Source of the DNA: an uncultured Candidatus Saccharibacteria bacterium
GTDB taxonomy: Bacteria > Patescibacteriota > Dojkabacteria > SC72
Assembly (NCBI GenBank): GCA_964502535.1
Contig: CAZCWY010000006.1
Coordinates: forward strand, 1-22,917
Direction: 5' to 3'
DNA: 22,917 bases
Each line of letters begins with the position of its first letter. The stretch's first letter is position 1. Position numbers and translations under genes: made by a program. Positions 71-22,529 of the stretch are shown one piece after another. Below the pieces are notes generated by a model. It saw only the letters and a program-made list of their open reading frames with translations, did no database searches and was not told the origin of the DNA.

Positions 71-1387
71 TTATTTAAGATGAAGATAGAAAGATTTGCT
101 TCCATCGTTATGTACAACTAAGGCATATTTACATGGATATGCAGGAAGGTTAGTTGAATAAATCCCGTAATATACTTTTCCATTAGCAATGGCCTTTACG
201 GGAGCACCTTCACCAGTTAAATATGCCCAGTTTCTTCCAGTACTTCTAATGTAGTTGTCTACATTAGTGCATATTCCTGTTGGAACGGTATATGTTAAAT
301 TACTATCTTGATTACCTCTAGTGGTGCTCACCATGTCCCAAGCTCTGTGAGATGTTTTATATACCTGAGTTATTCTTCCACCATCCAATGGTGCTTTATA
401 TGTTCTGTCTGATACGTATGACCAGTATGATCCACCATTAAGGAAGAGGGAAGGATCTTGTTTAACATTGTTTCTATCACGGATTTCAAAATGTAGATGT
501 GAACCAAAAGAACAACCTGTGTGTCCTTGATATCCAATAATATTTCCAGCAGTTATAACAGTACCATTCCCAAGACCTCCAGAGTTAAATAGGGCAATAA
601 CTAAATCAGAGATCTTTTCATCCATATCTGAAATCATAGCTGTTGTTATAGCAAGATCTTTCTTATACGCTTCTTCTCTTCTTTTCGACTCTGCAAGAAG
701 ATTGTTCTTCTCAATTTTTTGTTGATCTAAATATGCTTTCTCTTCAACTAATCTTTTCTTTTCTGTCTCAACTTCATTTCTTTTCTTTTGTAAATCGGCT
801 TTCTTACTTGCTAGTAAGAGTTCTTCACCCTCCAAAGAAACCATCTTAACTGAGTATTGCTTAAGAGAGTTTTTATCATTTAATCTGGTCTCAACTAGAT
901 ATTTGATTTTTCTTATTATAGAATCTAAGTTTTTAACATCAAAGAGATATTCAAAAGGAGTTACATGAGAGAATTTATACGACTGAGTTACTCTCTCATT
1001 AACAGTCTCTTCCAAGATGTGAATTTCTTGATTTAATACACTAATATCATTTTCTTTAATAGTTATTTCCTCTGCAAGTAGATTAATCTCAATATCTTGA
1101 GCAGTTACTTCTATTCCTAGAGCTTCGATAACTTTTTCAGTTTGAGATATTTCAGTAGTAATATATTTAATTTTTTCATTTAAAGATAACTGTTGATAAT
1201 CTTCATTTTTTAATTTCTTTTGAAGAGAACCCTGACTACTTTCAAGTTTGTTTAATTCTTTCTGTAAACATATATATCTTTCTTGAGCAGGCATACTTCC
1301 AGGACAAACTTCTACAGCCTTTACATTAGCTATTGAAAATAGAAAGGAAAATATAAAAATTGTAAGAATAGCTATATATTTTTTCAT
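71..1387 (-). CDS. Secreted coiled-coil M23/LytM-family peptidase (EnvC/PcsB-like FtsEX partner) with a permuted catalytic domain
   Basis: N-terminal signal peptide (MKKYIAILTIFIFSFLFSIANVKA). About 240 aa of heptad-like K/E/L-rich sequence follows. Then GYQGHTGCSFGSHLHFEIR (the HxH motif of M23), and further downstream SHRAWD (HxxxD), GAPVKAIANGKVYYG and VVHNDGSKSFYLHLK. The start ATG overlaps the ftsX stop (ATGA). Confidence 0.85.
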   Translation of the reverse strand: MKKYIAILTIFIFSFLFSIANVKAVEVCPGSMPAQERYICLQKELNKLESSQGSLQKKLKNEDYQQLSLNEKIKYITTEISQTEKVIEALGIEVTAQDIEINLLAEEITIKENDISVLNQEIHILEETVNERVTQSYKFSHVTPFEYLFDVKNLDSIIRKIKYLVETRLNDKNSLKQYSVKMVSLEGEELLLASKKADLQKKRNEVETEKKRLVEEKAYLDQQKIEKNNLLAESKRREEAYKKDLAITTAMISDMDEKISDLVIALFNSGGLGNGTVITAGNIIGYQGHTGCSFGSHLHFEIRDRNNVKQDPSLFLNGGSYWSYVSDRTYKAPLDGGRITQVYKTSHRAWDMVSTTRGNQDSNLTYTVPTGICTNVDNYIRSTGRNWAYLTGEGAPVKAIANGKVYYGIYSTNLPAYPCKYALVVHNDGSKSFYLHLK

Positions 1388-2316
1388 ATTTGATCTTTAA
1401 GATATTTTTTAACAGCACTTACACTACTAAGGAAACCAATTAGAGAACCAGCAGTTAAATGTATCAGAACATATATTAGGATAAATGTAATATTAGGTTT
1501 AAGTACATAGGAAAGATTAATATCTTTAAACATCTCTGTTATCCAAGTAGAAAACTCTGTACCACTTGAATATATATTGGCAGAGTACCAAGGAATTAAT
1601 ACTATCAAGGTAGCGAGTAATGCTCCAATTAATCCATAGAATGTACCCTCTAGTATAAAGGGAGTACGTATAAACTTATCTGGACTGCCTACAAGATGCA
1701 TTATCTCTATCTCTTCTTGATGTATTTTAATATTAAAACCGATTGTTACTCTAATTAATGCTATTGTAATAATTATCATAGCTGAAATTAAGACAGTACC
1801 ACCTATATTTATTATTCTTGATAGTGTTTTAATATTATTAACAACATCTTTAAAATACATAACATCATCAATATTTGGATTTGTTTCTTTCGCAACATTA
1901 ATATCTTCAATAATGACAAGTAAGGAATCTATATTCTTTGCTCTAATTTCTAAACTAGGTGGAAGGGAATCTGCAGTAACGGTAGATATTAAGTCTGGAT
2001 TATCAGCAAAATCTTGCTTATATACCTCTAATGCCTCCTCTTGGGATATATAGAGTAACTCTTCTATAATCTCTGGATTATTAATCTGATCTCTAAATTT
2101 GAATATCTCACTCTCTTCTGTTCCCTTTTTAAAAAACACTATTACCTGTGCTCTCTGTTCATAGTAATCTACAGTTTTAGCTATGAGTATCGAAGCAGCA
2201 ATAAACACAGAGGTTAGTGTAAATACAATAGCAGAAACTAGAATAGTGGATACTGTTAGCCACTTATTTCTTTTTATATTTTTACTTGTAACGGTAAATA
2301 CTCTTGTATTATTCAT
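1384..2316 (-). CDS. ftsX: Cell-division ABC transporter permease FtsX
   Basis: Topology is one N-terminal TM, a roughly 120-aa extracytoplasmic domain, then three C-terminal TMs. It lies immediately downstream of ftsE with an 8-nt overlap (ATGAATAA). Confidence 0.9.
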   Translation of the reverse strand: MNNTRVFTVTSKNIKRNKWLTVSTILVSAIVFTLTSVFIAASILIAKTVDYYEQRAQVIVFFKKGTEESEIFKFRDQINNPEIIEELLYISQEEALEVYKQDFADNPDLISTVTADSLPPSLEIRAKNIDSLLVIIEDINVAKETNPNIDDVMYFKDVVNNIKTLSRIINIGGTVLISAMIIITIALIRVTIGFNIKIHQEEIEIMHLVGSPDKFIRTPFILEGTFYGLIGALLATLIVLIPWYSANIYSSGTEFSTWITEMFKDINLSYVLKPNITFILIYVLIHLTAGSLIGFLSSVSAVKKYLKDQI

Positions 2317-3256
2317 CTTTCTTCTGACTTAAATAATTCTTAACATAAGAAGCTAATTCTTTGTTTTCTCTTTTTTTTAACTTCATACCCTTTAAATCTT
2401 GTGTAGTAATATTTACTAATATCTCAGGAGATTTAATCGCATATTTTTTTAGTTTCTCTTGTAAAGATTTTGAAAGATGTTCAAACTCTTTAGAAATTTC
2501 TACCTCTTTCTTATCCTCTACTTTTGTTTCAGCTTTGGGAGTTTCCTGCTCCTTTTCTTTAGTATCCTTTTCCTTTGTTTTTGTAACCTCTTTTGCTCCT
2601 GTATCAGAGTGTAATTTTCCATCTTTAATATTTATTGTCCTGTCTGATGTGTTGTTAATTAGATTTAGATCATGAGAAATTACCATTACTGTAGTACCGC
2701 TCTTGTTAATTCTTTTTAGAATATCTAGAATCTGAATTGCATTTTGAGAATCAAGATTACCTGTTGGCTCGTCAGCAATAAAGAGATCTGGCTTATTAGC
2801 TAGCGCTCTTGCAATTGCTCCTCTCTGTTGTTCACCACCGGAAAGCTCCTGAGGAAAAAGCATTCTTCTTTCTCTAAGTCCAACTAAATCAAGCAGATAG
2901 TCAGTAGTATCTATAATTTCTTTATTACTCTTATCTAATATCTCCAAAGCGAAAGCGATATTTTCTTCAAGGGTTTTAGTATTTAATAGCTTTATATCTT
3001 GAAATACTATTCCTAATTTCTGCCTATATGCAGGAAGTAATCTTCTATTAAGTTTGGGGACTTCTATGTCATTAAAGAAAATACTTCCAGAAGTTGGAAC
3101 CTCTTCCCTTATTAGTAATTTCATTATTGTTGATTTACCAGCACCTGATGGACCTATGATAAAACAGAACTCTCCTGGATCTATTCTAAAGGTAACATCA
3201 GAAAGTGCCGTAATATCCTCTTTATATTTCTTTGTTACAGTATCAAAGATTATCAT
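2309..3256 (-). CDS. ftsE: Cell-division ABC transporter ATPase FtsE with a roughly 95-aa K/E-rich C-terminal extension
   Basis: Walker A GPSGAGKST, ABC signature LSGGEQQR, Walker B LFIADEPTGNLD and H-loop ISHD. The ABC core ends near residue 220, and residues about 220-315 are extra. Confidence 0.93.
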   Translation of the reverse strand: MIIFDTVTKKYKEDITALSDVTFRIDPGEFCFIIGPSGAGKSTIMKLLIREEVPTSGSIFFNDIEVPKLNRRLLPAYRQKLGIVFQDIKLLNTKTLEENIAFALEILDKSNKEIIDTTDYLLDLVGLRERRMLFPQELSGGEQQRGAIARALANKPDLFIADEPTGNLDSQNAIQILDILKRINKSGTTVMVISHDLNLINNTSDRTINIKDGKLHSDTGAKEVTKTKEKDTKEKEQETPKAETKVEDKKEVEISKEFEHLSKSLQEKLKKYAIKSPEILVNITTQDLKGMKLKKRENKELASYVKNYLSQKKDE

Positions 3257-3291
3257 GAGCAGTTTATAAGCAGATTAAGTTACGGTATATA

Positions 3292-4374
3292 TTACTGTAT
3301 TCTGAGCTGGGCTTCAAGAAACTCTTCAATATTCCCATCTAGAATACTTTCTGGGTTGCTACTTTCTAAATTACTCCTTAAATCCTTAACCAATTTATAC
3401 GGATGTAGTATGTAGTTTCTTATCTGATTTCCCCATCCAGCTAATTTGTAATCTCCCTTTATTTGAGAAATCTCCTTTAATCTGTTTTCTTCCAATATCT
3501 TCCAAAGTTTACCTTTTAATATTTGCATAGCTTTCTGTCGATTTTGAAGCTGACTTCTTTCCTGAGAGCAAGTAACAGTTATTCCTGATGGAATATGTGT
3601 AATCTCCACTGCGGAGGATGTTTTGTTTACATTCTGTCCTCCAGGACCTCCAGATTTTGTTGCTTTAAATTCTATATCTGTTTCTGGTATCTCAATATCC
3701 TTTTCTAAGTCAGCAAGTATAGGGATAACTTCAACACCTGCAAATGATGTTTGTCTAAGATTTTGGGCATTAAATGGAGATAGCCTAATTAACCTATGTG
3801 TTCCGTGTTCCTTTTTTAATAATCCATATGAATATTTACCAAGAATATCAATAGAAACAGTAGCAATACCCGCCTCATTTCCTTTAACAATGTTAGTAAT
3901 ATTGTACTTCCAACCCATTTTCTCAATATATCTGGTATACATTCTAAAAAGCATCTCACACCAATCCTCAGCTTCTATACCTCCCTGTCCAGCGTGTATC
4001 GAGAGAGTTGCATTACAGATATCATATTTCCCGGAAAGAAATTTTAGAGATTCAAACTGAGATACCTCAAGTTTAATTCTTTGGAAATCTTCAGACAGAA
4101 TATCTTGTTCATTGATACTCGTATCATCAATAAGGGAGAGTAGAGAATTTAAATTGTTTTTTATAGAGTCAATTTTATCAATCTCTTGTTTAATATCAGA
4201 GATTTGTATCAAGACATCTTGTGCATGTTTCTGATTATCCCAAAGGGCCTTATTACTACTTTCAGTTTCTAAAGAAGAAAGGATTTCTTTTTTAGAATCA
4301 ATATCCAAAGACTTCTCAATCTCTAGCACTTTTTCGAGTAATTGTTCTGTATCTCTTTTACTAATATTTCCCAT
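3292..4374 (-). CDS. prfB: Peptide chain release factor 2, encoded as one uninterrupted frame
   Basis: GGQ motif (SGGPGGQNVNKTSSAV) and the RF2-specific SPF tripeptide (RLSPFNAQ). The 360-aa ORF covers the N-terminal region that is frameshift-encoded in many bacteria. Confidence 0.95.
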   Translation of the reverse strand: MGNISKRDTEQLLEKVLEIEKSLDIDSKKEILSSLETESSNKALWDNQKHAQDVLIQISDIKQEIDKIDSIKNNLNSLLSLIDDTSINEQDILSEDFQRIKLEVSQFESLKFLSGKYDICNATLSIHAGQGGIEAEDWCEMLFRMYTRYIEKMGWKYNITNIVKGNEAGIATVSIDILGKYSYGLLKKEHGTHRLIRLSPFNAQNLRQTSFAGVEVIPILADLEKDIEIPETDIEFKATKSGGPGGQNVNKTSSAVEITHIPSGITVTCSQERSQLQNRQKAMQILKGKLWKILEENRLKEISQIKGDYKLAGWGNQIRNYILHPYKLVKDLRSNLESSNPESILDGNIEEFLEAQLRIQ

Positions 4375-4418
4375 TCTTGTATATTATACTATCCTAGTTT
4401 AAAAAATATACAACAAAG

Positions 4419-6071
4419 ATGTTTGGACTATTTGAAAAAAAGAAAAGAAAAGATGGCAAAGATGGAGGAACAAAACAGCTAAGTAAATTTGTTGTGCTTT
4501 TAATACTTGATGGCTTTGGAATACATCCTGATCCAGAAGGAAATGCTGTATTAGGATCTAATACTCCTTTTTTGGATACTGCTTGGACATATGGTAAATC
4601 AACTCTTTTAAATGCATCGGGTACATATGTAGGTCTTCCTTCAGAGGAAGCAGGAAATTCAGAGGTTGGACATCTTAATTTAGGTGCGGGACAGGTAGTA
4701 TATCAATCATATCCAAGAATTAATGATGCAATTTCCACCCACGAATTAGACAGCAATATTGTACTGCGAGATGCCTTTGCTGAGGTTAGGAAGAGAGGTT
4801 CTAGTATACATCTTGCAGGAGTATTAAGTCCTGCTGGTGTACATGGTCATATTAAACATCTTTTTTCTTTAATGGAGATTTGTAAAGCTAATGGTATAGA
4901 TCCATATATTCATATTTTTTTTGATGGAAGAGATACTCCTCCTAAGGATGGATTTCTGTATTTAAATAAATTAAATGAAAAAATCAAAGAGCTCGGAATT
5001 GGAACGATTTCATCTATTCAGGGAAGATTTTATGGTATGGATAGGGATAATCGTTGGGAGAGAATTAAGTTGGCGTATGATGCAATGGTTGGATTGTCTC
5101 CAGACACTTTTCAGGATCCAGTAGTTGCTCTTCAAAGAGCTTATGCAAACAATATAACAGATGAATTTATTAAACCATCCACCCGAGTAGATATCACTGG
5201 TACTCCAATAGGGGCGATAAAATCTAATGATATTCTTCTTCTTTGGAATTTTAGAGAAGATCGTGCAAGAGAATTAAGTAAAGCTTTTATATCAAAGGAG
5301 TTTGAGCATTTTGTAAGAAGAAATTATCCTGAGAATCTATATCTTGTAACAATGACTGGTTATGAACAAGGAATCGATGCACACGTTATCTTCCCTCCTA
5401 AAAAAATTACTCTTCCTGTCGCTGAATATATTTCTAATCAAGGTTTTAATCAATTACACATCTCTGAAACTGAGAAGAATATGCATGTAACATATTTCTT
5501 TAATGGTGGTATCGAACAGCCTCATTTAGGTGAAGACTTTTTTAATATTCCTTCCCCAAGAGTAGAAAATTATGCAACGATTCCTCAAATGAGTTCTCCA
5601 ATAATTAGGGATGAGGTTGTAAAAAGAATTAAAGCATTTGATACATACAAGTACAAATTTATTGTTATTAATTTTGCAAATCCAGATATGTTAGGTCATA
5701 CAGGTGATTACTATGCAACAGTTAAAGGAAATGAAATAGTTGACCAATTAACTGCAGATATTTCTAAGATTACTCTCTCTATGGGTGGAGCAATGGTAAT
5801 TACTGCAGACCATGGAAATTGTGAGACTATGATAAATAGGGTAACTAAGGAGGTTGATATCGCACATACCAACAATCCAGTTCCTTTGGTAGTACTTACA
5901 AGTATGAAGGATATAACTCCAAAACCAGGTGATAAGATGATTAAAATTGGAACTGGACAAAATGCTCATACGACAGGACTATTAGCAGATATCTCTCCTA
6001 CCTGTCTCGGACTTTTAGGCTTGGATATTCCTGACAGTATGACAGGAGTTGATTTAAGAAACATTTTCTAG
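4419..6071 (+). CDS. gpmI: 2,3-bisphosphoglycerate-independent phosphoglycerate mutase
   Basis: LILDGFG near the N-terminus, SEVGHLNLGAGQVVYQ, a NFANPDMLGHTG-type motif and ITADHGNCE. Length is about 550 aa. Confidence 0.95.
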   Translation: MFGLFEKKKRKDGKDGGTKQLSKFVVLLILDGFGIHPDPEGNAVLGSNTPFLDTAWTYGKSTLLNASGTYVGLPSEEAGNSEVGHLNLGAGQVVYQSYPRINDAISTHELDSNIVLRDAFAEVRKRGSSIHLAGVLSPAGVHGHIKHLFSLMEICKANGIDPYIHIFFDGRDTPPKDGFLYLNKLNEKIKELGIGTISSIQGRFYGMDRDNRWERIKLAYDAMVGLSPDTFQDPVVALQRAYANNITDEFIKPSTRVDITGTPIGAIKSNDILLLWNFREDRARELSKAFISKEFEHFVRRNYPENLYLVTMTGYEQGIDAHVIFPPKKITLPVAEYISNQGFNQLHISETEKNMHVTYFFNGGIEQPHLGEDFFNIPSPRVENYATIPQMSSPIIRDEVVKRIKAFDTYKYKFIVINFANPDMLGHTGDYYATVKGNEIVDQLTADISKITLSMGGAMVITADHGNCETMINRVTKEVDIAHTNNPVPLVVLTSMKDITPKPGDKMIKIGTGQNAHTTGLLADISPTCLGLLGLDIPDSMTGVDLRNIF

Positions 6072-6829
6072 ATTCCGAAGAATAGTAAAATAATTCCTAA
6101 TATTATTCTATATACTCCAAAAAATGTAAGCCAATTCTTCTTACTGTATTTTTTGAGTAATATTAATCCAAGATATGTAATAATTCCCGCTATTAATATT
6201 CCAAAAATATCTTTTCCATTCAAAACTCTTTCTGGGTATTCCTTTAAAATTTGATAAATAGGTGCTGCAAGTAACAGAGGTAAACCTAAAAGGAATGAAT
6301 ATTGAATAGCAGTATATTTATTTAAACCTGTAAACATACCAAAAATTGTTGATATTCCAGATCTAGAACCTCCGGGAACTAATGCAAATATCTGACTTAA
6401 ACCCATTACTAAAGATTGTTTCCAGCTAACTTCTTCAAACTCAATTTCACTTGGTTCTTTTCTTCGTTCGATTAATATCATTAGTATCCCCCAAAGAATT
6501 AGAGATATTGCTATAAAGAGGTTTCCTCTTAATTTCTCTTCAATAATGGATTCAAAGAGTAATCCTACAATTCCTGCAGGAATGGTTGAGAGAAGAATTT
6601 TAAGATATAGGGACAATTTCTTTTTTGCAAATATATTTTTAAAAAGAAAATTATAGAAAGATATTAATAGAGCAATTGTAGTACCTAAATGTAAGACAGA
6701 TAAAAGATATGTATCCATTTTAATATCTAGTATCTGTGAGCTTAGAATTAAATGTGCACTGCTAGATATGGGAAGTAGCTCCGTTAATCCTTGTAAAAAG
6801 CCTAGTACTGCTATTTTTAGTGTATCCAT
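6068..6829 (-). CDS. uppP: Undecaprenyl-diphosphate phosphatase (BacA/UppP)
   Basis: Signature motifs ELLPISSSAHL and PGGSRSG in a polytopic membrane protein of about 250 aa. Confidence 0.95.
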   Translation of the reverse strand: MDTLKIAVLGFLQGLTELLPISSSAHLILSSQILDIKMDTYLLSVLHLGTTIALLISFYNFLFKNIFAKKKLSLYLKILLSTIPAGIVGLLFESIIEEKLRGNLFIAISLILWGILMILIERRKEPSEIEFEEVSWKQSLVMGLSQIFALVPGGSRSGISTIFGMFTGLNKYTAIQYSFLLGLPLLLAAPIYQILKEYPERVLNGKDIFGILIAGIITYLGLILLKKYSKKNWLTFFGVYRIILGIILLFFGI

Positions 6830-6875
6830 ATCTTTTAATATGTTATATTATTTACATATGATATATTCTACTTAT

Positions 6876-7562
6876 ATGAAACAAAAAAAGATAGTACAGT
6901 ATCTCTTCTGTATATTCATTTTTATATTATCCTTTATTAAAGTCTCTGCAGCTTCGCCTTCTTTCTCATTCTATCCATCTTCTGGAATCGTTAAAAATAC
7001 ACAAGAAGGATTTACTCTAGATATATTAATAGATTCTGGCACCTATGAACTTAATAAGGCTCGTGCTGTAATTAAATTTGATCCTAAAGTAATTCAACTT
7101 AGAAAAGCATCTAGAAACACCTCTTTGTTTGAAGGGTGGCCAGAGGATCAGAGTAGTACGGATAATATAAATGGGGTTATTATGCTAACAGGAATAACCC
7201 AAGATAATGAGGAAGTACCTTTCTATAAAACAGATACAAGCCCTGATGTATTTGCAAGGTTTGAATTTGATGTAATTACTACTGAAAAGCAAGATTTTGT
7301 ATTAAATTTTGAATTTTCTGGTGAGGATGAAGAGTTAATGTCTGTTTTAATTGATAATGAGAGTACTGAAAACATCCTTGCTATTAAGCCACTCTCTGCA
7401 ATCTTTTCTTTAACGGGAGAAGATATTCCCAAGACAGGAATAAGTATGAGTGCATTGGGTGCAATTTTAGGTGTGTTGCTAATTCTTGTTGGAGGATATA
7501 TTAGAACAAGTAGTAATATCTTCTTTAGAAAACGAACCGGTACAATTGTTCTTTCTGAGTAG
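6876..7562 (+). CDS. Cohesin-like surface protein with a C-terminal sortase-type sorting signal
   Basis: I call the start at the internal ATG (MKQKKIVQYLFCIFIFILSFIKVSA, a signal peptide) rather than the ORF-track start at 6768, which overlaps uppP. The beta-rich body resembles cohesin (FTLDILIDSG..ARAVIKFDPKVIQL). The C-terminus is IPKTG, then a hydrophobic span, then a basic FFRKR tail. Confidence 0.7.
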   Translation: MKQKKIVQYLFCIFIFILSFIKVSAASPSFSFYPSSGIVKNTQEGFTLDILIDSGTYELNKARAVIKFDPKVIQLRKASRNTSLFEGWPEDQSSTDNINGVIMLTGITQDNEEVPFYKTDTSPDVFARFEFDVITTEKQDFVLNFEFSGEDEELMSVLIDNESTENILAIKPLSAIFSLTGEDIPKTGISMSALGAILGVLLILVGGYIRTSSNIFFRKRTGTIVLSE

Positions 7563-8477: not shown

Positions 8478-9254
8478 ATGGAAGAAAATTTTAAAAAGAG
8501 GAGTGTAGTACTTAATAGGGTAAAGAGAGTTCCATTTGTTGTTTTTCTAAAAAGAATTCTTCCACTATTATTATCTATTTTTATTATTTTCCTTTCTTTC
8601 ATCTTTGGTTTATGGAATGTTAAGAAGTTTGATTACAACATCAGTAAACCTAAAAATGTTACCACTGAGGAATTAGATTCTTACCTATCAGTTATTAAAG
8701 GAAGGAATATATTTATATTAAATCCAAATGAAGTTATTAATACAATCTTAAATAGTAATGGATTTGTGAAAGAGGTTACTGTTAAAAAAATATTACCTAG
8801 TACTCTTCAAATAAATATTAAAGAGTATTCTCCTTTCTATATTGGTTATTCTTCTAATAGATGTATTCTTTTTGCTGATACTGGAGAGTTAATTAAAGAG
8901 ATTTGTAAAGAGTGTGAGACAGGGTGTAGGAGGGAGAGTGATACTTCTAAAATGGTATATATTAATTCAAATAGTGTAATTGAAAGTAATGATAGGTTAA
9001 TCTTTTTTGAGGAAATATATAAAGTGGAATCCCTTCTATTTGAATTTAACTATTCAATTTCTACTCTTAGTATTATGGATGGAATCGCAATATTCAAAGA
9101 TACACAAGAGCATTCTTTTACTTTTGATCTTTCTAACCAATTAGAGGATCAATTAGCTAGAATGTATTTGATTGGGACTAAAATTAACAAAGATATGATA
9201 CAATATACTAGTTTAGACTTGAGATTTGAAAGACCCGTGATGAATATTAAGTAG
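8478..9254 (+). CDS. ftsQ: Cell-division protein FtsQ/DivIB (POTRA domain)
   Basis: Short cytoplasmic tail and a single TM (LPLLLSIFIIFLSFIFGLW). POTRA-like segment (NIFILNPNEVINTILNSNGFVKEVTVKKILPSTLQINIKE). It sits directly upstream of ftsA-ftsZ. Confidence 0.75.
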   Translation: MEENFKKRSVVLNRVKRVPFVVFLKRILPLLLSIFIIFLSFIFGLWNVKKFDYNISKPKNVTTEELDSYLSVIKGRNIFILNPNEVINTILNSNGFVKEVTVKKILPSTLQINIKEYSPFYIGYSSNRCILFADTGELIKEICKECETGCRRESDTSKMVYINSNSVIESNDRLIFFEEIYKVESLLFEFNYSISTLSIMDGIAIFKDTQEHSFTFDLSNQLEDQLARMYLIGTKINKDMIQYTSLDLRFERPVMNIK

Positions 9255-9380
9255 ATTTTTATTGACATTACATTAATACTTTGTGAAAATTGTAATTGGT
9301 TCTTGCTAAGTGAGTTCTTTTTGACTATATTATATACAACAAGATATAAATTTAAGTAAAATTTGACTGCTCTTAAATAT

Positions 9381-10670
9381 ATGGCACGTAAAACAATAAC
9401 AGCAATTGATGTAGGCTCATCTAAGATTACAACAGTAATCTCTTCTGTTGAAGATAATCAAACGCCCTCTGTAATAGGAGTATGTTCATATCCAAGTAAA
9501 GGAATTAAGAAAGGTGTAGTAGTAAATATTGATGATGCTACTAATGCTATCTCTGAGAGTGTAATGGCGGCTGAAAGAATGGCAGGTGTTACTGTCTCAG
9601 ATGTATATGTTTCAATTAATGGTGAGTTAGTTACTAGTTTAAATAATAAAGGGGTAGTAGCTGTTGCTAGTGCAGAGATTACAGTAGATGATACATACAG
9701 AGCTATTGAGAATGCTAGAACGCTTTCCTTACCGGACAATTTAAATCCTATTCATATTATTCCTAGAGAGTTTGTAGTTGATAATCAGGGTGGAATTAGA
9801 TATCCAATTGGAATGTCAGGTAGTAGACTGGAGGTTGAAACTCATATAATTACTGCGCCTAATTCGTATTGGCAAAATCTTAAGAAGTGTGTTGAACAGT
9901 TAGGTTTAAATGTATTTGATGTTGTATTTACAGGTTGGGCTTCTTCTTTGTCTGTTTTAACTGATACAGAAAAAGAATTGGGTGTTACTCTTTTAGATAT
10001 AGGTGCTGGTACTACGAGTATTTCAATTTTTGAAGAGGGCTCCGTTATATATAGTGGTACTATTCCCTTAGGTGGTATTAATGTTACAAGTGATATTGCA
10101 ATTGGTTTACAAGTTTCTTTGGAAGATGCAGAAAAGATTAAGGTGCATATGAATGATCTTTTTGAAAACAAAACAAAGTCTAAGAAAGCATCATCTGATT
10201 CTACACCAGCTTTACTTCGAAAGATTGAAGAAGAGGAACCAAAATTAAAAAAGGGTGATGAGATTGATCTTTCTTTCTTGGATATTTCTGGAAAAAGAGT
10301 ATCTAAGGAGATGTTGAAAAATATTGTTGAAGCTAGATGTGAAGAGATTTTTGAAATGGCAAGAGACAATGTAGCGAAAGCAGGATTTAAGATAAATATG
10401 CCTGCAGGAGTTGTTCTTACGGGAGGTTCTTCTTTGCTTAAGGATCTTTCTAAGTTTACACAGGGAATATTTGGAGTAGCTTCTAGAATAGGGTATCCTT
10501 CAGGTTTAAATGGGATGATTGAAGAGATTTCAGATCCTTCTTTTGCATGTGTTCAGGGTTTGGTAAAATATGCACTTGATGATGATGGTGATTCCGAATC
10601 AATAAAGACAAAGAGTAGTAGCACTTTTAAGCATAGAGTAGTAGAATGGTTTAAATCATTAATTCCGTAA
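9381..10670 (+). CDS. ftsA: Cell-division protein FtsA
   Basis: Actin-fold phosphate-1 motif AIDVGSSKITTV, LDIGAGTTSISIF, VLTGGSSLL and a C-terminal amphipathic helix (RVVEWFKSLIP). The ORF track starts at TTG 9363; ATG 9381 gives the canonical N-terminus. Confidence 0.9.
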   Translation: MARKTITAIDVGSSKITTVISSVEDNQTPSVIGVCSYPSKGIKKGVVVNIDDATNAISESVMAAERMAGVTVSDVYVSINGELVTSLNNKGVVAVASAEITVDDTYRAIENARTLSLPDNLNPIHIIPREFVVDNQGGIRYPIGMSGSRLEVETHIITAPNSYWQNLKKCVEQLGLNVFDVVFTGWASSLSVLTDTEKELGVTLLDIGAGTTSISIFEEGSVIYSGTIPLGGINVTSDIAIGLQVSLEDAEKIKVHMNDLFENKTKSKKASSDSTPALLRKIEEEEPKLKKGDEIDLSFLDISGKRVSKEMLKNIVEARCEEIFEMARDNVAKAGFKINMPAGVVLTGGSSLLKDLSKFTQGIFGVASRIGYPSGLNGMIEEISDPSFACVQGLVKYALDDDGDSESIKTKSSSTFKHRVVEWFKSLIP

Positions 10671-10707
10671 ACTGCCTAGAATATAAACTGTAAGGTTAAT
10701 TTAGAGT

Positions 10708-11946
10708 ATGTTAGTTACAACAAATGTAGATCCCGTTGCCAAGATTAAAGTAATTGGAGTCGGAGGGGGAGGCTGTAATGCAATTAACACAATGTTAACA
10801 GATTACGATATCCCAGGTGTTGAGTTTATGGCTTTTAATACAGATGCTCAAACTCTTAAGTTATCTAAAGCTCCTGTTACTTTACAATTAGGGGAAACCC
10901 TTACTAAAGGTCTTGGAGTAGGTGGTAATCAAGAATTAGGGGCACAAGCTGCTGAGGAGAGTTTAGATCAGATTCAGGAGCACCTAGAGGGTGCTGATAT
11001 GGTATTTATCACTGCAGGTATGGGTGGTGGAACTGGTACAGGAGCTGCTCCCATTATTGCAGGTGTAGCAAAAAATATGGGTGCTTTAACTGTTGCAGTT
11101 GTAACAAAGCCTTTTGATTTTGAAGGTAATAGAAGAAGAGAGATAGCAGAAGAGGGTATTAATACTCTTAGAGACAAAGTAGATACATTAATAGTTGTTC
11201 CAAATCAAAGATTATTAGAAATTGCTGATGCAAATATATCCTTTATTGAAGCTATGAAAATGGTTGATTCTGTTTTAGCAGAGGGAGTAAATAGTATTTC
11301 AACATTAATCAGTCAGACTGGATATATTAATGCAGATTTTAATGACGCAAAATCAGTTATGCAAAATGCTGGTACAGCTTTAATGGGAATAGGTAGAGCA
11401 AGTGGAGAAAAGAGGGCAGAATTGGCTGCAAGAGAAGCAACCTCTTCTCCTTTATTGGATATGTCTATTGAAGGTGCAACAGGAGTTCTTTACAATATCG
11501 TAGGTGCTGATTTAACCCTACCTGAGATTAGTATGGTATCTGAATTAATTCAGGAAGCGGTTGATCCATCTGCTAATATAAAGTTTGGTGCTCAAATAGA
11601 TCCTTCATTAGGAGAGGAATTGATAATTACAATTGTAGCTACAGGCTTTGACGAAAAGAAACAAGTATTTACTAAACAACAGAAAGGTGATGAAGATGAT
11701 ACAGATATATTTGGATTAGGAACTGTATCTAACACAATTAATTCTTTCGAAGATGAAAAGCCACAAAAAGAAAATGAAAAGATATTTGATATTCAAGATG
11801 ATGATATACAATCTGACTTAGACAGTGAACAGGATGTGTATAAAGGTGCAACTTTAAAAGAAGAAAATACACCAGATGATGACTTCGATGATCCTTTAGA
11901 CAAGCCTGCTTTTATGAGAAAGATGTTTTCTGGAAAGAAGAAGTAG
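10708..11946 (+). CDS. ftsZ: Cell-division GTPase FtsZ
   Basis: Tubulin signature GGGTGTGAAP, NTDAQ and the T7 loop region. An acidic linker is followed by a conserved C-terminal peptide (DKPAFMRK). Confidence 0.97.
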   Translation: MLVTTNVDPVAKIKVIGVGGGGCNAINTMLTDYDIPGVEFMAFNTDAQTLKLSKAPVTLQLGETLTKGLGVGGNQELGAQAAEESLDQIQEHLEGADMVFITAGMGGGTGTGAAPIIAGVAKNMGALTVAVVTKPFDFEGNRRREIAEEGINTLRDKVDTLIVVPNQRLLEIADANISFIEAMKMVDSVLAEGVNSISTLISQTGYINADFNDAKSVMQNAGTALMGIGRASGEKRAELAAREATSSPLLDMSIEGATGVLYNIVGADLTLPEISMVSELIQEAVDPSANIKFGAQIDPSLGEELIITIVATGFDEKKQVFTKQQKGDEDDTDIFGLGTVSNTINSFEDEKPQKENEKIFDIQDDDIQSDLDSEQDVYKGATLKEENTPDDDFDDPLDKPAFMRKMFSGKKK

Positions 11947-11950
11947 TACA

Positions 11951-12172
11951 GTGATTATTGAAGTTTCTGTTAAAACTTCTGCTAAGGTAAGTAGTATTAA
12001 AAAAGAAGGAATAATCTATTATATTTCTTTAAAAAGTAAGCCTTTTCATAATAGCGCTAATATTGAATTGATAGATGTTCTTTCTTCCTATTTTGATGTA
12101 TTAAAATCCTCTGTTGTAATATTAAAAGGTTTTAAAAACAGAAGAAAGTTAATTGAGATTAAGGGTATATGA
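11951..12172 (+). CDS. DUF167 (YggU-like) small protein
   Basis: The 73-aa sequence matches the DUF167 pattern: V-V-K--A, then KPFHNSANIELIDVLSSYFDVLKSSVVILKGFKNRRKLIEIKG (canonical PP-DGKAN--L---LA--L-V-KS-V-I--G--SR-K-V-I-G). GTG start 4 nt after the ftsZ stop, and its stop overlaps the ftsW start (ATGA). Confidence 0.6.
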   Translation: MIIEVSVKTSAKVSSIKKEGIIYYISLKSKPFHNSANIELIDVLSSYFDVLKSSVVILKGFKNRRKLIEIKGI

Positions 12173-13476
12173 ATCTAATTAAAAAAGAGAAAAAAGGTTT
12201 AAAATTAGATCTATTTATCTTTATACCAACCGTAATTATTTCTATAATTGGGATAGTTACCCTGTTATCAACAACAATTGAAAGTAACGGACAATTTGGG
12301 GATTTAGATATCTTTAATAAACAGATTGTATTTTTAATTATTGGTTTTATAGTTTTTTTTATTACCTCCTTTATTGATATTTCATTATTAAAGTATTCCC
12401 AAATAATAATTCCTATTTATCTTCTTACAATAGTTCTATTAGCTTTAGTATATTTAATAGGACCAGTTATTAACAATGTACAAAGATGGTTAATAATTGG
12501 AGGAGTACAGGTTCAACCTTCGGAGATTGCTAAGATAACGGTTATTTTAACAACAGCAAGCATATTTTCACTCAAGAATAAATATAACCAATGGGTTTTA
12601 CTATTAGTATCTTTAATTCTTTTACTACCAATATTTTTACTAATATATTTTGAGCCAGCAGGAAGTATGTCCTTTTTAACCTTAATTATTTGGTTTATTG
12701 TCGCATTTACAGGCTTAAGTAATCAATTGAGAAATAGCATTGCCTTATTAATAATTGGGCTAATTTCTTCTTCTATGTTTTTAATTAGTTTTACAACTAA
12801 TTGGATATACGTCTTATTTTCTATCTTAGCAGTAATTATCGCTATATTTGGTTTTTACTACAGAAAAAGTTGGAAAATAGTTGTTGTAGTTAGCTTAGCA
12901 ATTGGTTTTCTAATTGGTTCTTTTTCCATACTTCTTTACAGTAACATTTTAAAGGATTACCAGAAGGATAGGATTGAGGCATTTCTTAATCCTACTCAAA
13001 GTAGTAAGGATATTGGATTTAATGTAAATCAAGCGAGAATTGCAATAGGATCAGGTCAGATTTTTGGTAAAGGATTTGGTAATGGAACACAAAGTAAAAG
13101 AGATTTTATACCTGAGCATCAAACAGATTTCATTTTTGCTTCATATGCAGAAGAGTTTGGATTAATTGGTTGTCTTTTCTTAATTACACTTTACGGGATA
13201 TTAATAGTGCGTATTCTTGTTGTTTCTCTTGATAAATCTGGTAATACCCTGTATTCAATAATTCTAGTAGGTATAGCTTTGAAAATTTTATTAGAAATCT
13301 TTATTAATATTGGAACTAATATGGGGGTAATACCTGCAACAGGTATACCACTACCCTTAGTTAGTTCAGGTGGAACAATTACTTTAGTAACACTCTTTTC
13401 TTTAGGAGTAGTTCAAAGTATAATAAGTAGAAGTTCTACCCATAGAACAGAAAAGAGTATAATTGACAATTATTGA
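12169..13476 (+). CDS. ftsW: SEDS-family peptidoglycan glycosyltransferase (FtsW/RodA)
   Basis: About ten TM segments. Conserved SEDS motifs include QPSEIAK, IPEHQTDFIFASYAEEFGLIG and PATGIPLPLVSSGGT. FtsW versus RodA cannot be decided from sequence alone; the ftsW label comes from context. Confidence 0.85.
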   Translation: MNLIKKEKKGLKLDLFIFIPTVIISIIGIVTLLSTTIESNGQFGDLDIFNKQIVFLIIGFIVFFITSFIDISLLKYSQIIIPIYLLTIVLLALVYLIGPVINNVQRWLIIGGVQVQPSEIAKITVILTTASIFSLKNKYNQWVLLLVSLILLLPIFLLIYFEPAGSMSFLTLIIWFIVAFTGLSNQLRNSIALLIIGLISSSMFLISFTTNWIYVLFSILAVIIAIFGFYYRKSWKIVVVVSLAIGFLIGSFSILLYSNILKDYQKDRIEAFLNPTQSSKDIGFNVNQARIAIGSGQIFGKGFGNGTQSKRDFIPEHQTDFIFASYAEEFGLIGCLFLITLYGILIVRILVVSLDKSGNTLYSIILVGIALKILLEIFINIGTNMGVIPATGIPLPLVSSGGTITLVTLFSLGVVQSIISRSSTHRTEKSIIDNY

Positions 13477-15293: not shown

Positions 15294-16037
15294 ATGAGTA
15301 AACAAAGATTTATCCAAATAGAGAGTAAGAATGCGTTATTAGAACTACTTCGTGAGGGTAGGGATTTTGAACGCATATATTTAGCTAGTAGTGCTTACAG
15401 AGATGAGAAAACTAAAGAGATAGTACAGTTAGCATCTGAAAAACATATTCCAATTCTTAGAGTACCTAAAAAAACATTAATGAGAAGACTTCGTGCTTCT
15501 ACTTCTGAGAGTGTAGTAGGGATGATGATTTCTCAAAATCAATGGGAGTTAGGAGATCTGTTTAAGAGTATCTATTCTCAAAATAAGATGCCTTTCTTTA
15601 TTATCTTAGATGATCTCAAATATACCCAAAACATTGCAGCAATAATGAGAACTGCATTTGCAACTGGTGTTAATGGAATAATAACTCATCCTAGTGAAGT
15701 TAATCTCGTTACTGATGAAACTATTAGAATTTCAATGGGAGCAGCTGAGCGAATTCCTTTAGTAGAAATGAATCTTTATACTGCAGTTAAAGAATTGAAA
15801 AAAGAGGGGATGAAAATCTTTGGAATTCATATGGAAGGAGAAACATATTACAATGTTGATTTGACTGGTCCATGTGCCTTTATACTTGGTTCTGAAGACT
15901 CTGGTATTTCTACCGGTATGCTTGAAAGAGTTGATCAAAAAGTTTCAATACCTATGAGAGAGGGAATAGGTTCACTTAATGTTAGTGTTAGTGCAGGTGT
16001 ATTAATGTATGATAAGCTAAGACAAGAAGTTAGTTAA
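15294..16037 (+). CDS. SpoU/TrmH-family RNA 2'-O-methyltransferase (RlmB-like)
   Basis: N-terminal SpoU substrate-binding-like region. SPOUT motifs NIAAIMRTAFATG, FILGSEDSGIS and IPMREGIGSLNVSVSAGVLMY. Confidence 0.85.
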   Translation: MSKQRFIQIESKNALLELLREGRDFERIYLASSAYRDEKTKEIVQLASEKHIPILRVPKKTLMRRLRASTSESVVGMMISQNQWELGDLFKSIYSQNKMPFFIILDDLKYTQNIAAIMRTAFATGVNGIITHPSEVNLVTDETIRISMGAAERIPLVEMNLYTAVKELKKEGMKIFGIHMEGETYYNVDLTGPCAFILGSEDSGISTGMLERVDQKVSIPMREGIGSLNVSVSAGVLMYDKLRQEVS

Positions 16038-16905
16038 ATTCGTCAAAGCTTTCTAATCCAAGTTTTTTTAATAAATCTTCTAAGTCATTTTTACTCAAGA
16101 ATCTTATTATCACTCTTCCTCCTTTACTTAATCTTCTTACACTAGTGCTGTATCCAATCTTTTTTGTAAGCATTTCTCCATATCTTAGTAAATCAGGATA
16201 GTCTGTTTGTAGAGTTTTGTATTTAGCACTTTTACCATAATTAATCTTTCTAACGAGTGATTCAGTTTGTCTTACACTTAATCCTCTCTTTATTACAATA
16301 TCAGTAGCTGCTACTAATGATTCATCATCCTTAATACCTAACAGAGCTCTAGCATGTCCCTCTGATATCGTTTCATTGAGTACGACCTCTTTAACAGGCT
16401 CTGGGAGCTTTAAAAGCCTCATCTTGTTTGATATCGTTACTCTATTTAATCCTACCTTAGTAGCTATCTCGTCTTGGGGTAAACCAAATTCATCTTGTAA
16501 TTGAGTAAAAGCATATGCTTCTTCAATTGGATTTAAATCTTGTCTTTGTATATTTTCAATTAAAGCCAATTCTAACATCTGTTGAGGAGAGGATTCTTTG
16601 ATAACGATAGGGACATATTTAAGTCCAGCTAATTGAGCTGCTCTAAATCTTCTTTCACCAGCAATAATTAGGTATTTATCTGAATTCTTATCTTTTGTAA
16701 CGATTAAAGGTTGTATTACACCACTTTCTCTAATGGAATCTGCTAACCCAATTAATTCATTGGGTTCTATTCTCATTCTTGGTTGAAATGGATTAGGTAA
16801 TATCTTTGTTATATCAAACTTCTCTCTATATGAACTTGATGAGTTATCTATCTCATTAGAATCAATTAAAGCTGCTAATCCTTTTCCTAATCTGTTCTCT
16901 TCCAT
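16030..16905 (-). CDS. parB: Chromosome partitioning protein ParB/Spo0J
   Basis: LGKGLAALI N-terminus, the ParB box GERRFRAAQLAG, an HTH region and a C-terminal dimerisation segment. Confidence 0.92.
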   Translation of the reverse strand: MEENRLGKGLAALIDSNEIDNSSSSYREKFDITKILPNPFQPRMRIEPNELIGLADSIRESGVIQPLIVTKDKNSDKYLIIAGERRFRAAQLAGLKYVPIVIKESSPQQMLELALIENIQRQDLNPIEEAYAFTQLQDEFGLPQDEIATKVGLNRVTISNKMRLLKLPEPVKEVVLNETISEGHARALLGIKDDESLVAATDIVIKRGLSVRQTESLVRKINYGKSAKYKTLQTDYPDLLRYGEMLTKKIGYSTSVRRLSKGGRVIIRFLSKNDLEDLLKKLGLESFDEFN

Positions 16906-16922
16906 TTTTAAAGGTTAATAAT

Positions 16923-17714
16923 TTAAAGAAATCTATTAATAAATTCTTTAGCAAGACTGTTGTATGCTATAGCTCCTGATGACTTTTTATCATATTGAAA
17001 TATGGTTTTACCAAAAGAGGGAGCTTCAGAAAGCCTAACATTTCTAGGTACTATGGATTCAAATGCTACTTCTTTGAAAAAATCTCTTACATCTTTGACA
17101 ACATTTGAAGAGAGTCTTGTTCTACTATCAAACATTGTGAGTATTATTCCTCCTAATTTTAAATTAGGATTAACACCCTTAATCAATTTCATTGTATTAA
17201 TTAATTGACCTAACCCTTCTAGTGCAAAATATTCACATTGAATTGGTATAACAAGGTTTTCAGCAGCACTTAAAGCATTAATAGTTAGTAGGCCTAAAGA
17301 GGGTGGACAATCAATTAATACAGCATCAAAATCATTATTAATATCCTCTAATGCTTTCTTTAGTAATGTTTCTCTAGAAATCATGCTAACCATTTCAATC
17401 TCTGCACCCGCAAGTGATAGATGAGATGGTACTAAAAAAAGGTTTGGAGTTGATGTGGAAACAAATACAGAACGAATAGGGGTAGAATTAATAATTACAT
17501 CATAAATATTCTTATAGGGAGCTTGTTGTTCTGTATTCCAACTCTGTTTATCAAACTGTTGAGTAAATCCGATTCCTGATGAGAGATTTGCCTGTGGATC
17601 TAGGTCTATTAATAGTACTTTCTTCCCTTTTTTTGCTAAAGCAGCACCTAGGTTTAAAGTAGTAGTAGTTTTACCTACACCACCTTTTTGATTAGCAATT
17701 ACGAAAATTTCCAT
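16923..17714 (-). CDS. parA: Chromosome partitioning ATPase ParA/Soj
   Basis: Deviant Walker A NQKGGVGKTTT, DLDPQAN and IDCPPSLG. Confidence 0.93.
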   Translation of the reverse strand: MEIFVIANQKGGVGKTTTTLNLGAALAKKGKKVLLIDLDPQANLSSGIGFTQQFDKQSWNTEQQAPYKNIYDVIINSTPIRSVFVSTSTPNLFLVPSHLSLAGAEIEMVSMISRETLLKKALEDINNDFDAVLIDCPPSLGLLTINALSAAENLVIPIQCEYFALEGLGQLINTMKLIKGVNPNLKLGGIILTMFDSRTRLSSNVVKDVRDFFKEVAFESIVPRNVRLSEAPSFGKTIFQYDKKSSGAIAYNSLAKEFINRFL

Positions 17715-20713: not shown

Positions 20714-21805
20714 TTAACTAAACAATTTTATTTCTTTTTCCACTCTCTCTTGTTCTTGTGTCTCACTGTCTGGAATAAAGTAGTAAGTACCTCTTCCTTT
20801 TCCTTTCTGGGCTATGTATTCTTTCTCTAAGAGAAGTTGTAGATCTCTGTAAGAGGTCATAAAGGAGATACCCATCATCTTCGTGTATTCTTGTCTTGTA
20901 ATCTTAATATTATTATTTAAATATTCAACAACCTTTACCTGTCTAGGATTTAGTTCATTATCTAAGAATTTTCTAATGTTTACTTTTTTGTCATATTCTT
21001 TTGTTAATTTCTTAGAAACATCTATTACAGTTAAAGAAAGGGAGTAAAGTATTGCTTCTATGAATATGGTTATATCTCTTTTACCTTTAGAGATTTTAAA
21101 AGCAGATTCAATATCCTCACTAATTGTAAAGAAAGCCTTTCCAAAAGGTATTATATTATGTGGATTTAAACCGTATGCTTTACTTAAAAGTTTTAATGTA
21201 AGAATTGCAGTAATCTGATTACCTCCATAGAAAGGTGCCTTGTCTATTAGTTCATATAGCAAGATACTTAACTGTATTAATTTGTGTGTACCTACTGAAG
21301 AGTTAGTAATCCAATTAAAAAGATCATTAAAGTGATACCTCATATCAATATTAGGATAGTAGTCTCTTTGGTTGTACCAGGTATCATATAGTTCAAATGG
21401 TTTTTCTGAGAATGTTTTTATTCTTCCCAGATCCCACGGTTCTACAATATCTTTCATCAATATTTTATTTAAATGAGTACAAAGCTCTATGGAGGGTTTT
21501 AGATTACTTTTAACAGAGTAGGTATTGATAAAGTCTTGAGTATTCTTAAAGTTAGTAAATATTTTTAATTTCGCTTTGTATGATGGAGTTACTTGTCCTC
21601 TTTGCACAGTTAATGCTTTGTTGTAACCAATGGGGTATGCTATTAACTCTCCTAATTTATCTATTTCTTCTGCACATATCTGTTCTCTACTTTCTTCGAG
21701 TAATGGACTTGGTACAACAATATTTTTAATTTCAGACACAGCAAGCTCATATCTTACTATGTAATTGAGAATTAGGTTTGTAATTGTATATTTAGGTATT
21801 TCCAT
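20714..21805 (-). CDS. Fic/Fido-fold protein with a degenerate active-site motif and a C-terminal winged-helix domain
   Basis: The Fic-motif position reads APFYGGNQITAI (canonical HPFxxGNGRxxR). The C-terminal wHTH (ITRQEYTKMMGISFMTSYRDLQLLLEKEYIAQKGKGRGTYY) is typical of long Fic proteins. Confidence 0.7.
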   Translation of the reverse strand: MEIPKYTITNLILNYIVRYELAVSEIKNIVVPSPLLEESREQICAEEIDKLGELIAYPIGYNKALTVQRGQVTPSYKAKLKIFTNFKNTQDFINTYSVKSNLKPSIELCTHLNKILMKDIVEPWDLGRIKTFSEKPFELYDTWYNQRDYYPNIDMRYHFNDLFNWITNSSVGTHKLIQLSILLYELIDKAPFYGGNQITAILTLKLLSKAYGLNPHNIIPFGKAFFTISEDIESAFKISKGKRDITIFIEAILYSLSLTVIDVSKKLTKEYDKKVNIRKFLDNELNPRQVKVVEYLNNNIKITRQEYTKMMGISFMTSYRDLQLLLEKEYIAQKGKGRGTYYFIPDSETQEQERVEKEIKLFS

Positions 21806-21938: not shown

Positions 21939-22529
21939 TCAATCTTGACATGTGCCAGAGCAAGCACAATTAGGAGGAACTTCACCTTCAATAGCATCTG
22001 GAGAAATTGCTCTTTTAAATATTTTTAAATTTTGATCTTTTCTTAAAAAAAGAGTACCTAATTTACCTCCAACAAGATCTAGTGAGTAGAATTCTTTTAA
22101 ACTATTGAAATCTAAATTTGAGATTCCACTCATATAATCGTTACTGCTAAATTCCTCTAAAGTATACAGTCCAATATTAGTGGAAGATATTTTAAGTTCA
22201 TTGGAGTGAAGCTGATTTTTTACAGGATAAAAAGATATCTTTACATTACGGTATCCTTGTAGATACCATTCACCAATAATGTCAGGTATTTCAGTATTAA
22301 AAAATTCATTAGATCCTAAAGAAGAGTTTAAATTGTACCTGTTAATGGTGGAAGAATGATAATTAATAATAGGTATATCTTCTAAATCGTTTATATTTTT
22401 ACTATTAGAAATCAAGTTTTTTACATATAGGACAAATAAAAGAAGGAATAAACAAGCAAAAATAAGAAGTATATAAAATCTTCTTTGGAAAAACATTTTT
22501 GAAAAAGTTTTGTTTAAAATGTTGTTCAT
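21939..22529 (-). CDS. Hypothetical N-terminally membrane-anchored protein with a Cys-rich C-terminus
   Basis: 196-aa ORF with one TM (FYILLIFACLFLLLFVLYV), an N/S-rich extracytoplasmic body and the terminal sequence PPNCACSGTCQD. No recognisable family. Confidence 0.5.
   Translation of the reverse strand: MNNILNKTFSKMFFQRRFYILLIFACLFLLLFVLYVKNLISNSKNINDLEDIPIINYHSSTINRYNLNSSLGSNEFFNTEIPDIIGEWYLQGYRNVKISFYPVKNQLHSNELKISSTNIGLYTLEEFSSNDYMSGISNLDFNSLKEFYSLDLVGGKLGTLFLRKDQNLKIFKRAISPDAIEGEVPPNCACSGTCQD

Follow-up and report, generated by a model that had tools for sequence, protein, structure and literature searches.

A probable circular permutation of the M23 peptidase domain, shared across Dojkabacteria, in the coiled-coil protein that partners FtsEX

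The window, that is, the whole 22,917-nucleotide stretch of DNA that was analysed, has a G+C content of 31.6% and carries on its minus strand ftsE, ftsX and a gene encoding a predicted cell-wall hydrolase, with prfB located upstream of the three. An ftsQ-like gene, ftsA, ftsZ, ftsW and parAB share the window, which places the hydrolase in a cell division setting. From the N- to the C-terminus, the protein comprises a putative signal peptide, a coiled coil similar to those of EnvC, PcsB and RipA, and an M23 domain whose two parts lie in swapped order. The features of the locus are listed below.

2,309 to 3,256, minus strand: ftsE, 315 aa, ABC ATPase with a K/E-rich C-terminal extension of ~95 aa; overlaps ftsX by 8 nt
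1,384 to 2,316, minus strand: ftsX, 310 aa, with FtsX_ECD and FtsX permease domains; overlaps the hydrolase gene by 4 nt
71 to 1,387, minus strand: coiled-coil hydrolase gene with the swapped-order M23 domain, 438 aa; its ATG overlaps the ftsX stop codon (ATGA)
1,316 to 1,387, minus strand: putative signal peptide or membrane anchor, residues 1-24 (MKKYIAILTIFIFSFLFSIANVKA), from reading of the sequence
584 to 1,288, minus strand: coiled-coil stalk, residues 34-268, with long helices at 69-139 and 154-268 (AlphaFold2 secondary structure)
443 to 580, minus strand: segment A, residues 270-315 (GNGTVITAGNIIGYQGHTGCSFGSHLHFE...DPSLF); Pfam profile positions 57-96; hhalign template columns 105-152, probability 98.8
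491 to 499, minus strand: HxH motif, H297-L-H299; H297 invariant, H299 at least 90% conserved
398 to 442, minus strand: linker of 15 aa, residues 316-330 (LNGGSYWSYVSDRTY); AlphaFold2 pLDDT 97-98, delimited by hhalign
74 to 397, minus strand: segment B, residues 331-438; hhalign template columns 25-103, probability 98.4; zoocin A chain positions 11-90
335 to 349, minus strand: HxxxD motif, HRAWD, H347 to D351; on the canonical H-x-G-i-D in the hhalign output
215 to 325, minus strand: family-specific insert of 37 aa, residues 355-391, containing a helix at 374-383; a gap in hhalign
80 to 82, minus strand: H436 of Y-L-H-L, two residues before the C-terminus; invariant

Canonical M23 domains display, from the N- to the C-terminus, the motifs HxxxD, YxHL and HxH. 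In the hydrolase the order is HxH, HxxxD and YxHL, which departs from the collinear order of Peptidase M23 (PF01551). Segment A corresponds to the canonical C-terminal third of the domain (the V-x-x-G-x-x-I-G hairpin, G-x-T-G, HLHFE and DP..F), and segment B to the canonical N-terminal two-thirds (P-l-x-G-x-iTQ, HxxxD, GxPVxAxxxGxV, vvHxDG and YxHL). The linker connects what would be the C- and N-termini of a canonical domain. Segment B itself runs through KAPLDGGRITQVYKTSHRAWDMVS, the 37-aa insert, GEGAPVKAIANGKVYYG and ALVVHNDGSKSFYLHLK, the insert being placed between D-M-V-S and GEGAPV (GEGAPVKA). It is missing from the short-type homologues P0085, P0098, P0103, P0105, P0108 and P0115. The chain terminates in ...FYLHLK, with the stop codon at 71-73, and H436 is presumably the second catalytic histidine, equivalent to LytM H260. 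A sequence-only reading of this DNA had located HLH at nt 491-499 and HxxxD at nt 335-349, and had described this segment order with a linker of ~15 aa; motifs, coordinates and order (residues 270-315, 316-330 and 331-438) were all correct, and the insert of ~40 aa that it reported after HxxxD measures 37 aa. An alignment with zoocin A placed HxxxD opposite 'STGRNWA', within the insert. This placement was rejected in favour of H347-D351, because profile-profile alignment with hhalign puts HRAWD on the canonical motif and residues 355-391 then form an insertion.

The Pfam profile PF01551 (curated cut-off, 28.7 bits) matched the hydrolase with 47.9 bits (E 1.5e-12), well beyond what chance would give, in two stretches, the best of which aligned residues 272-312 to profile positions 57-96 of 96, i.e. 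the start of the domain to the end of the model. Two partial matches in swapped order were what the earlier reading had anticipated from such a search. A phmmer search of PDB sequences with the C-terminal 176 aa gave the same picture: query positions 100-175 aligned to positions 11-90 of the zoocin A chain (5kvp) and positions 14-44 to 99-129, and lysostaphin was likewise matched in swapped order. We rebuilt the canonical order by hand, placing segment B before segment A, and repeated the searches. The Pfam profile now produced a single continuous match over positions 10-96 with 60.3 bits, versus 50.5 bits in two pieces for the native order, and removing the 37-aa insert as well raised the score to 65.9 bits over positions 2-96. 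Every match to PDB M23 enzymes became one stretch across the artificial junction with a better E-value, which went from 1.4e-7 to 1.8e-10 for zoocin A and from 2.6e-6 to 3.8e-9 for lysostaphin.

Profile-profile comparisons were carried out with hhalign, using 26 diverse family members and 60 canonical M23 domains. In the native order, query columns 5-55 aligned to template columns 105-152 (probability 98.8, score 101) and query columns 62-164 to template columns 25-103 (probability 98.4, score 90.5). The re-ordered profile yielded a single alignment of query columns 2-153 to template columns 30-152 (probability 99.9, E 1.3e-31, score 185). The break between the native pieces falls at the adjoining template columns 103 and 105; therefore, no part of the domain has been duplicated and none lost. 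The cut lies in the loop linking the YxHL strand to the V-x-x-G-x-x-I-G hairpin. The abutting pieces and the single full-length match after re-ordering bear out two earlier claims, namely that this is a clean circular permutation, neither a truncation nor a duplication, and that the protein ends at the point where a canonical domain would run on into the segment that here comes first. That an ordinary collinear M23 domain was simply misread is hardly conceivable, given that Pfam, phmmer and hhalign searches in the native order always split into two swapped matches, and that Foldseek finds no M23 structure in the PDB.

A search of 5.8 billion proteins retrieved 115 homologues, ~430-460 aa long and sharing as little as 25% identity; ~55 further family members came from a profile search of 1.84 billion cluster representatives (50% identity). 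Mapping both half-profiles on the 257 proteins retrieved showed the A-B order, with the HxH half first, in ~170, and the same coiled coil was present in every full-length protein with this order. The rest were tandem canonical M23 proteins (B-A-B-A and similar). Among the 170 permuted proteins, 141 end exactly one residue past Y-x-H-[LIMV], and 162 end 1-3 residues past it. Nearly all homologues are labelled Dojkabacteria/WS6, a class of the candidate phyla radiation, and the closest ones are labelled candidate division WS6 or Candidatus Dojkabacteria. The motif [QE]GHTGCSFG occurs in 25 species-level genomes, among which the same labels predominate; some metagenome-assembled genomes with this motif are labelled 'uncultured Candidatus Saccharibacteria', which we take to be a generic label.

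The end of the gene lies only 70 nt from the window edge, so that a frameshift, a premature stop, a mis-assembly or truncation of an ordinary gene at the contig end has to be considered. Such an artefact is next to impossible, since homologues on long contigs have the stop at the same position, with a conserved SurA-like gene downstream, and at least 115 independent sequences from many samples are involved. Moreover, the DNA beyond the stop does not encode another M23 segment: in the 29 loci that we fetched, each hydrolase gene has a single HxH segment, and none occurs past its stop. The sole extra weak match to an HxH segment in these loci, in locus L014, corresponds to an upstream tandem paralogue. 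An assembly or frameshift artefact had been named as something that would overturn the permutation, and with an order common to ~170 homologues it does not apply.

Locus L014 (contig CAYVBS010000001.1) has two coiled-coil paralogues with permuted M23 domains in tandem after ftsX, at 2571..3863 and 3926..5278. One is a 430-aa protein of a 'short' type that lacks both the 37-aa insert and a histidine at position -4 from the aspartate (...TGTRYAIDITS...), and the other is a 450-aa copy of the window type. At loci L030 and L031, ftsX is followed by the short type alone.

Gene order was preserved along with domain order. The ftsE, ftsX and hydrolase genes were collinear in every locus with enough upstream DNA, with a paralogue in between at one locus, and the linkage holds for the most distant members (P0115, P0110, P0105, P0103 and P0085). 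The gene that follows the hydrolase is the SurA-like gene. Adjacency to ftsEX is a characteristic of the EnvC/PcsB/CwlO/RipC class, and here it extends to the 4-nt overlap with ftsX. The ftsE-ftsX-hydrolase set is a translationally coupled operon across Dojkabacteria. A survey of homologues had been proposed to see whether the permuted form is conserved and always next to ftsEX, and it is so in every locus with upstream DNA. An FtsX search aimed at sister lineages returned only Dojkabacteria among the 120 matches listed.

The full-length AlphaFold2 model, built on 111 aligned sequences, had a pLDDT of 88.5, with 94-98 in the C-terminal domain. At the N-terminus, it shows a helix at residues 2-16 followed by a low-confidence stretch. 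Modelled alone, the 172-aa domain formed one compact unit (pLDDT 94.4, pTM 0.89), and its beta strands match the strand positions of the homologous M23 segments. A Foldseek search of the PDB with this domain model retrieved no M23 structure (best E-value, 0.2), as would also happen with an incorrect or non-M23 model. Foldseek aligns structures in chain order, so this outcome is expected for a topology that is not collinear. In the BFVD, the domain model had a single match, A0A510E7V3_3 (E 5e-5, 189 aligned columns, TMq 0.42). This entry is one piece of a very large phage protein, in which neighbouring M23 domains or another case of permutation may be present.

An alternative is that the two segments are what is left of two degenerated tandem M23 domains and share no joint fold, a pseudo-permutation without a functional fold; the frequency of tandem M23 proteins and the lack of an M23 structural match would fit it. 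We regard this as very improbable. On the M23 profile, the two segments complement each other exactly and without overlap (t25-103 and t105-152), and together they supply one full set of catalytic residues. In addition, AlphaFold2 predicts one compact domain with a pTM of 0.89, and the arrangement is under strong purifying constraint over ~170 sequences. We thus consider it probable that the M23 zinc peptidase domain of this FtsEX-associated coiled-coil protein has undergone a genuine circular permutation, shared by the whole lineage.

Both halves of the domain are homologous to M23 enzymes such as lysostaphin, LytM, zoocin A and ShyA (PF01551), with HxxxD, HxH, YxHL, GxPVxA and the VxxGxxIG hairpins present, and after re-ordering, the sequence can be aligned over its whole length to both the family profile and solved enzymes. 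The differences are the permuted chain order, cut in the loop after YxHL, the 15-aa linker joining the old termini, the 37-aa insert after HxxxD, and the Dojkabacteria family motif GHTGCSFGSHLHF, which replaces GxTGxSTGPHLHF. We know of no permuted M23/LytM domain, and a full-text literature search found no description of one, the terms 'circularly permuted' and LytM co-occurring in one general review of hydrolases (PMC6403190). What is already known is circular permutation as an event, the M23 enzyme class and the FtsEX context. No NCBIfam model was found for the protein. Tools bound to domain order return a weak or partial M23 match for such proteins ('faint' or 'weak' in precomputed Pfam tables), and Foldseek returns none. 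M23/LytM enzymes (lysostaphin, LytM, ShyA and EnvC) are central to cell-wall remodelling and to lytic-enzyme engineering. A natural, conserved permutation would mean that the M23 fold tolerates a cut beside a catalytic histidine.

In LytM and lysostaphin, zinc is bound by the His and the Asp of HxxxD together with the second His of HxH; the first His of HxH and that of YxHL are catalytic. By homology, we take H347, D351 and H299 to be the zinc ligands and H297 and H436 to be catalytic. The sequence-only reading had stated that the metal and catalytic residues are retained, and all five are indeed present. The homologue alignment shows no variation at H297, H436 and Y434 and at least 90% conservation at H299 and D351. 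The protein thus shows, besides a profile score above the PF01551 threshold, HxxxD (H347-RAW-D351), HxH and the catalytic His of YxHL. The loss of zinc-ligand or catalytic residues that marks dLytM factors such as EnvC, NlpD and DipM is not observed; because all five residues are present, we did not file the hydrolase among them.

The position of the first histidine relative to the invariant aspartate varies in the family: it is -4 in ~84 proteins and -6 in ~46, while the rest have another spacing (including -5) or no such histidine. In M23 enzymes, the H-x-G-i-D spacing is normally rigid, and variable spacing is unusual. As judged from the alignment, the geometry at the first histidine may differ between subgroups. 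In some variants the histidine lies further away, with an inserted Cys-containing loop; the corresponding region of the hydrolase is residues 341-351 (nt 335-367). Since the spacing varies and the short-type subgroup lacks the histidine at -4, some family members are possibly inactive.

The same drift in spacing and the short-type paralogue without this histidine would also fit a catalytically dead LytM factor, similar to EnvC or DipM, that activates another hydrolase, and EnvC, the best-studied FtsEX partner with a LytM domain, is exactly that (PMC11627006). Nevertheless, HxxxD, HxH and the YxHL histidine are all found in the hydrolase and its close relatives, and the invariance of H297 and H436, together with the conservation of H299 and D351 in at least 90%, is hard to explain without catalysis; in EnvC, the zinc ligands have been lost (PMC11627006). 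A dead regulator is accordingly an unlikely reading. With its catalytic and metal residues conserved, in contrast to those of EnvC, the hydrolase is likely, on homology grounds, an active endopeptidase controlled by FtsEX.

The stalk was compared with known FtsEX partners. Foldseek matches of the full-length model in the PDB were dominated by the coiled coil and comprised FtsEX-EnvC (8tzl_E), EnvC (6tpi_A), RipA (6ewy/9hmx) and PcsB (4cgk). As these include EnvC, RipA N-terminal domains and PcsB, the stalk is of the type found in FtsEX partners, and it is presumed to be the FtsX-binding module. The overall architecture is that of the EnvC/PcsB/CwlO/RipC class: a predicted export signal, a long antiparallel coiled coil and a C-terminal cell-wall domain. 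EnvC (6tpi, 8tzl), the best Foldseek match of the full-length model, also shares the gene linkage to ftsEX and the succession of a long antiparallel coiled coil and a LytM-type domain. However, its LytM domain is collinear and has lost the zinc ligands, and it acts as an amidase activator that a restraining-arm helix keeps closed (PMC7668044, PMC11627006). The Dojkabacteria protein differs in keeping the catalytic residues, in its permuted domain and in a stalk helix that runs straight into that domain.

In PcsB, CwlO and RipC/RipA, as predicted for the protein described here, the hydrolase activity resides in the coiled-coil protein that FtsEX binds (PMC11627006). Several homologues are called 'CwlO-like' in JGI labels, two carry a Pfam CC_PcsB domain, and the stalk matches RipA and PcsB structures. 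Unlike the M23 metallopeptidase of Dojkabacteria, PcsB is a CHAP protein, and CwlO and RipC are NlpC/P60 cysteine peptidases. In one branch of the candidate phyla radiation, the partner of FtsEX would thus be a metallopeptidase that looks active, in contrast to the cysteine peptidases and the inactive LytM adaptor known so far.

In the AlphaFold2 model, the last stalk helix stops at residue 268 and the HxH hairpin begins with its first strand at 276, in agreement with the earlier claim that the junction with the coiled coil has shifted to the strand leading into HxH. The chain ends two residues past the catalytic H436. Because the new termini of a circular permutation are spatial neighbours, the stalk would be tethered right beside two active-site strands. 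The AlphaFold2 secondary structure contains no apparent separate restraining helix or arm.

Structural work is actively addressing how FtsEX passes ATP-driven motion on to its hydrolase partner. Known FtsEX partners are autoinhibited, and ATP-driven movement of FtsEX frees them (PMC11627006, PMC7668044). By analogy, the hydrolase would be exported, and its coiled coil would bind the FtsX extracellular domains in the manner of EnvC, PcsB, CwlO and RipC. ATP-driven movements of FtsEX would activate the protein as a peptidoglycan endopeptidase, which would split the septum itself, as a hydrolase and not as an amidase activator. Stalk movement could act straight on the active-site strands, with no separate restraining helix; this is conceivable because the helix ending at 268 joins the HxH hairpin within ~8 residues and the chain end lies beside it. 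Judging from the model, direct mechanical gating through the point of stalk attachment is plausible. We are doubtful of the stronger proposal that the permutation is an adaptive rewiring of mechanotransmission, in which the chain enters at the HxH hairpin and leaves at the catalytic histidine of YxHL, so that the coiled coil pulls or twists the active-site strands without a restraining helix or an occluding pro-segment. To our knowledge, direct mechanical gating has been described neither for an FtsEX partner nor for an M23 enzyme. If adaptive rewiring were true, this would be an M23 hydrolase gated mechanically, a mode of control new for FtsEX partners. The family would also offer a ready-made test case for FtsEX mechanotransmission, in which the stalk is joined at another point of the same fold.

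Many of the best representative matches are tandem M23 proteins (B-A-B-A), and the permuted profile matched several of them in one stretch over their internal A-to-B junction: P0148 at 132-277, P0155 at 320-482, and likewise P0168. Unlike the hydrolase, these proteins keep complete collinear domains, and none of them has the Dojkabacteria coiled coil. Since tandem junctions match the permuted profile in one stretch, a route by duplication and then deletion from a tandem M23 protein is plausible, and the sequence comparisons make it the likely one. The route remains a conjecture, given that the 257 retrieved proteins include no tandem M23 intermediate with the Dojkabacteria coiled coil and that the search of 5.8 billion proteins found no canonical-order protein with a detectably related stalk. 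Among the proteins P0146-P0257, many contain between two and four canonical M23 domains in tandem (from B-A-B-A to B-A-B-A-B-A-B-A), and some exceed 1000 aa.

Several further observations concern the protein and the window. Conserved cysteines occur just past the signal peptide (C28-P29 and a Cys at position 40; residues 28-40, nt 1268..1306) and within the active-site motif GHTG-C-SFGSHLHF (residue 292, nt 512..514), and they may have a disulfide or metal role. The ORFs at 6768..7562 (+), 20714..21805 (-) and 21939..22529 (-), of 264, 363 and 196 aa, had no Pfam match at E <= 0.001. The division and segregation cluster occupies 8478..13476 (+) and 16030..17714 (-) and comprises genes for an FtsQ-type POTRA protein, ftsA, ftsZ, ftsW/rodA, parB and parA. 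The release factor gene at 3292..4374 (-) is an uninterrupted single ORF of 360 aa with PCRF and RF-1 domains and an SPF motif, which identifies it as RF2-type. It apparently lacks the programmed +1 frameshift that is common in bacterial prfB. Finally, the lysine/glutamate-rich extension of FtsE, of ~95 aa, spans residues ~220-315 (2309..2600, minus strand), past the ABC ATPase domain. Matches by tblastn reach residue 315 in many Dojkabacteria loci, but FtsE is only 216 aa long in the distant locus L002.
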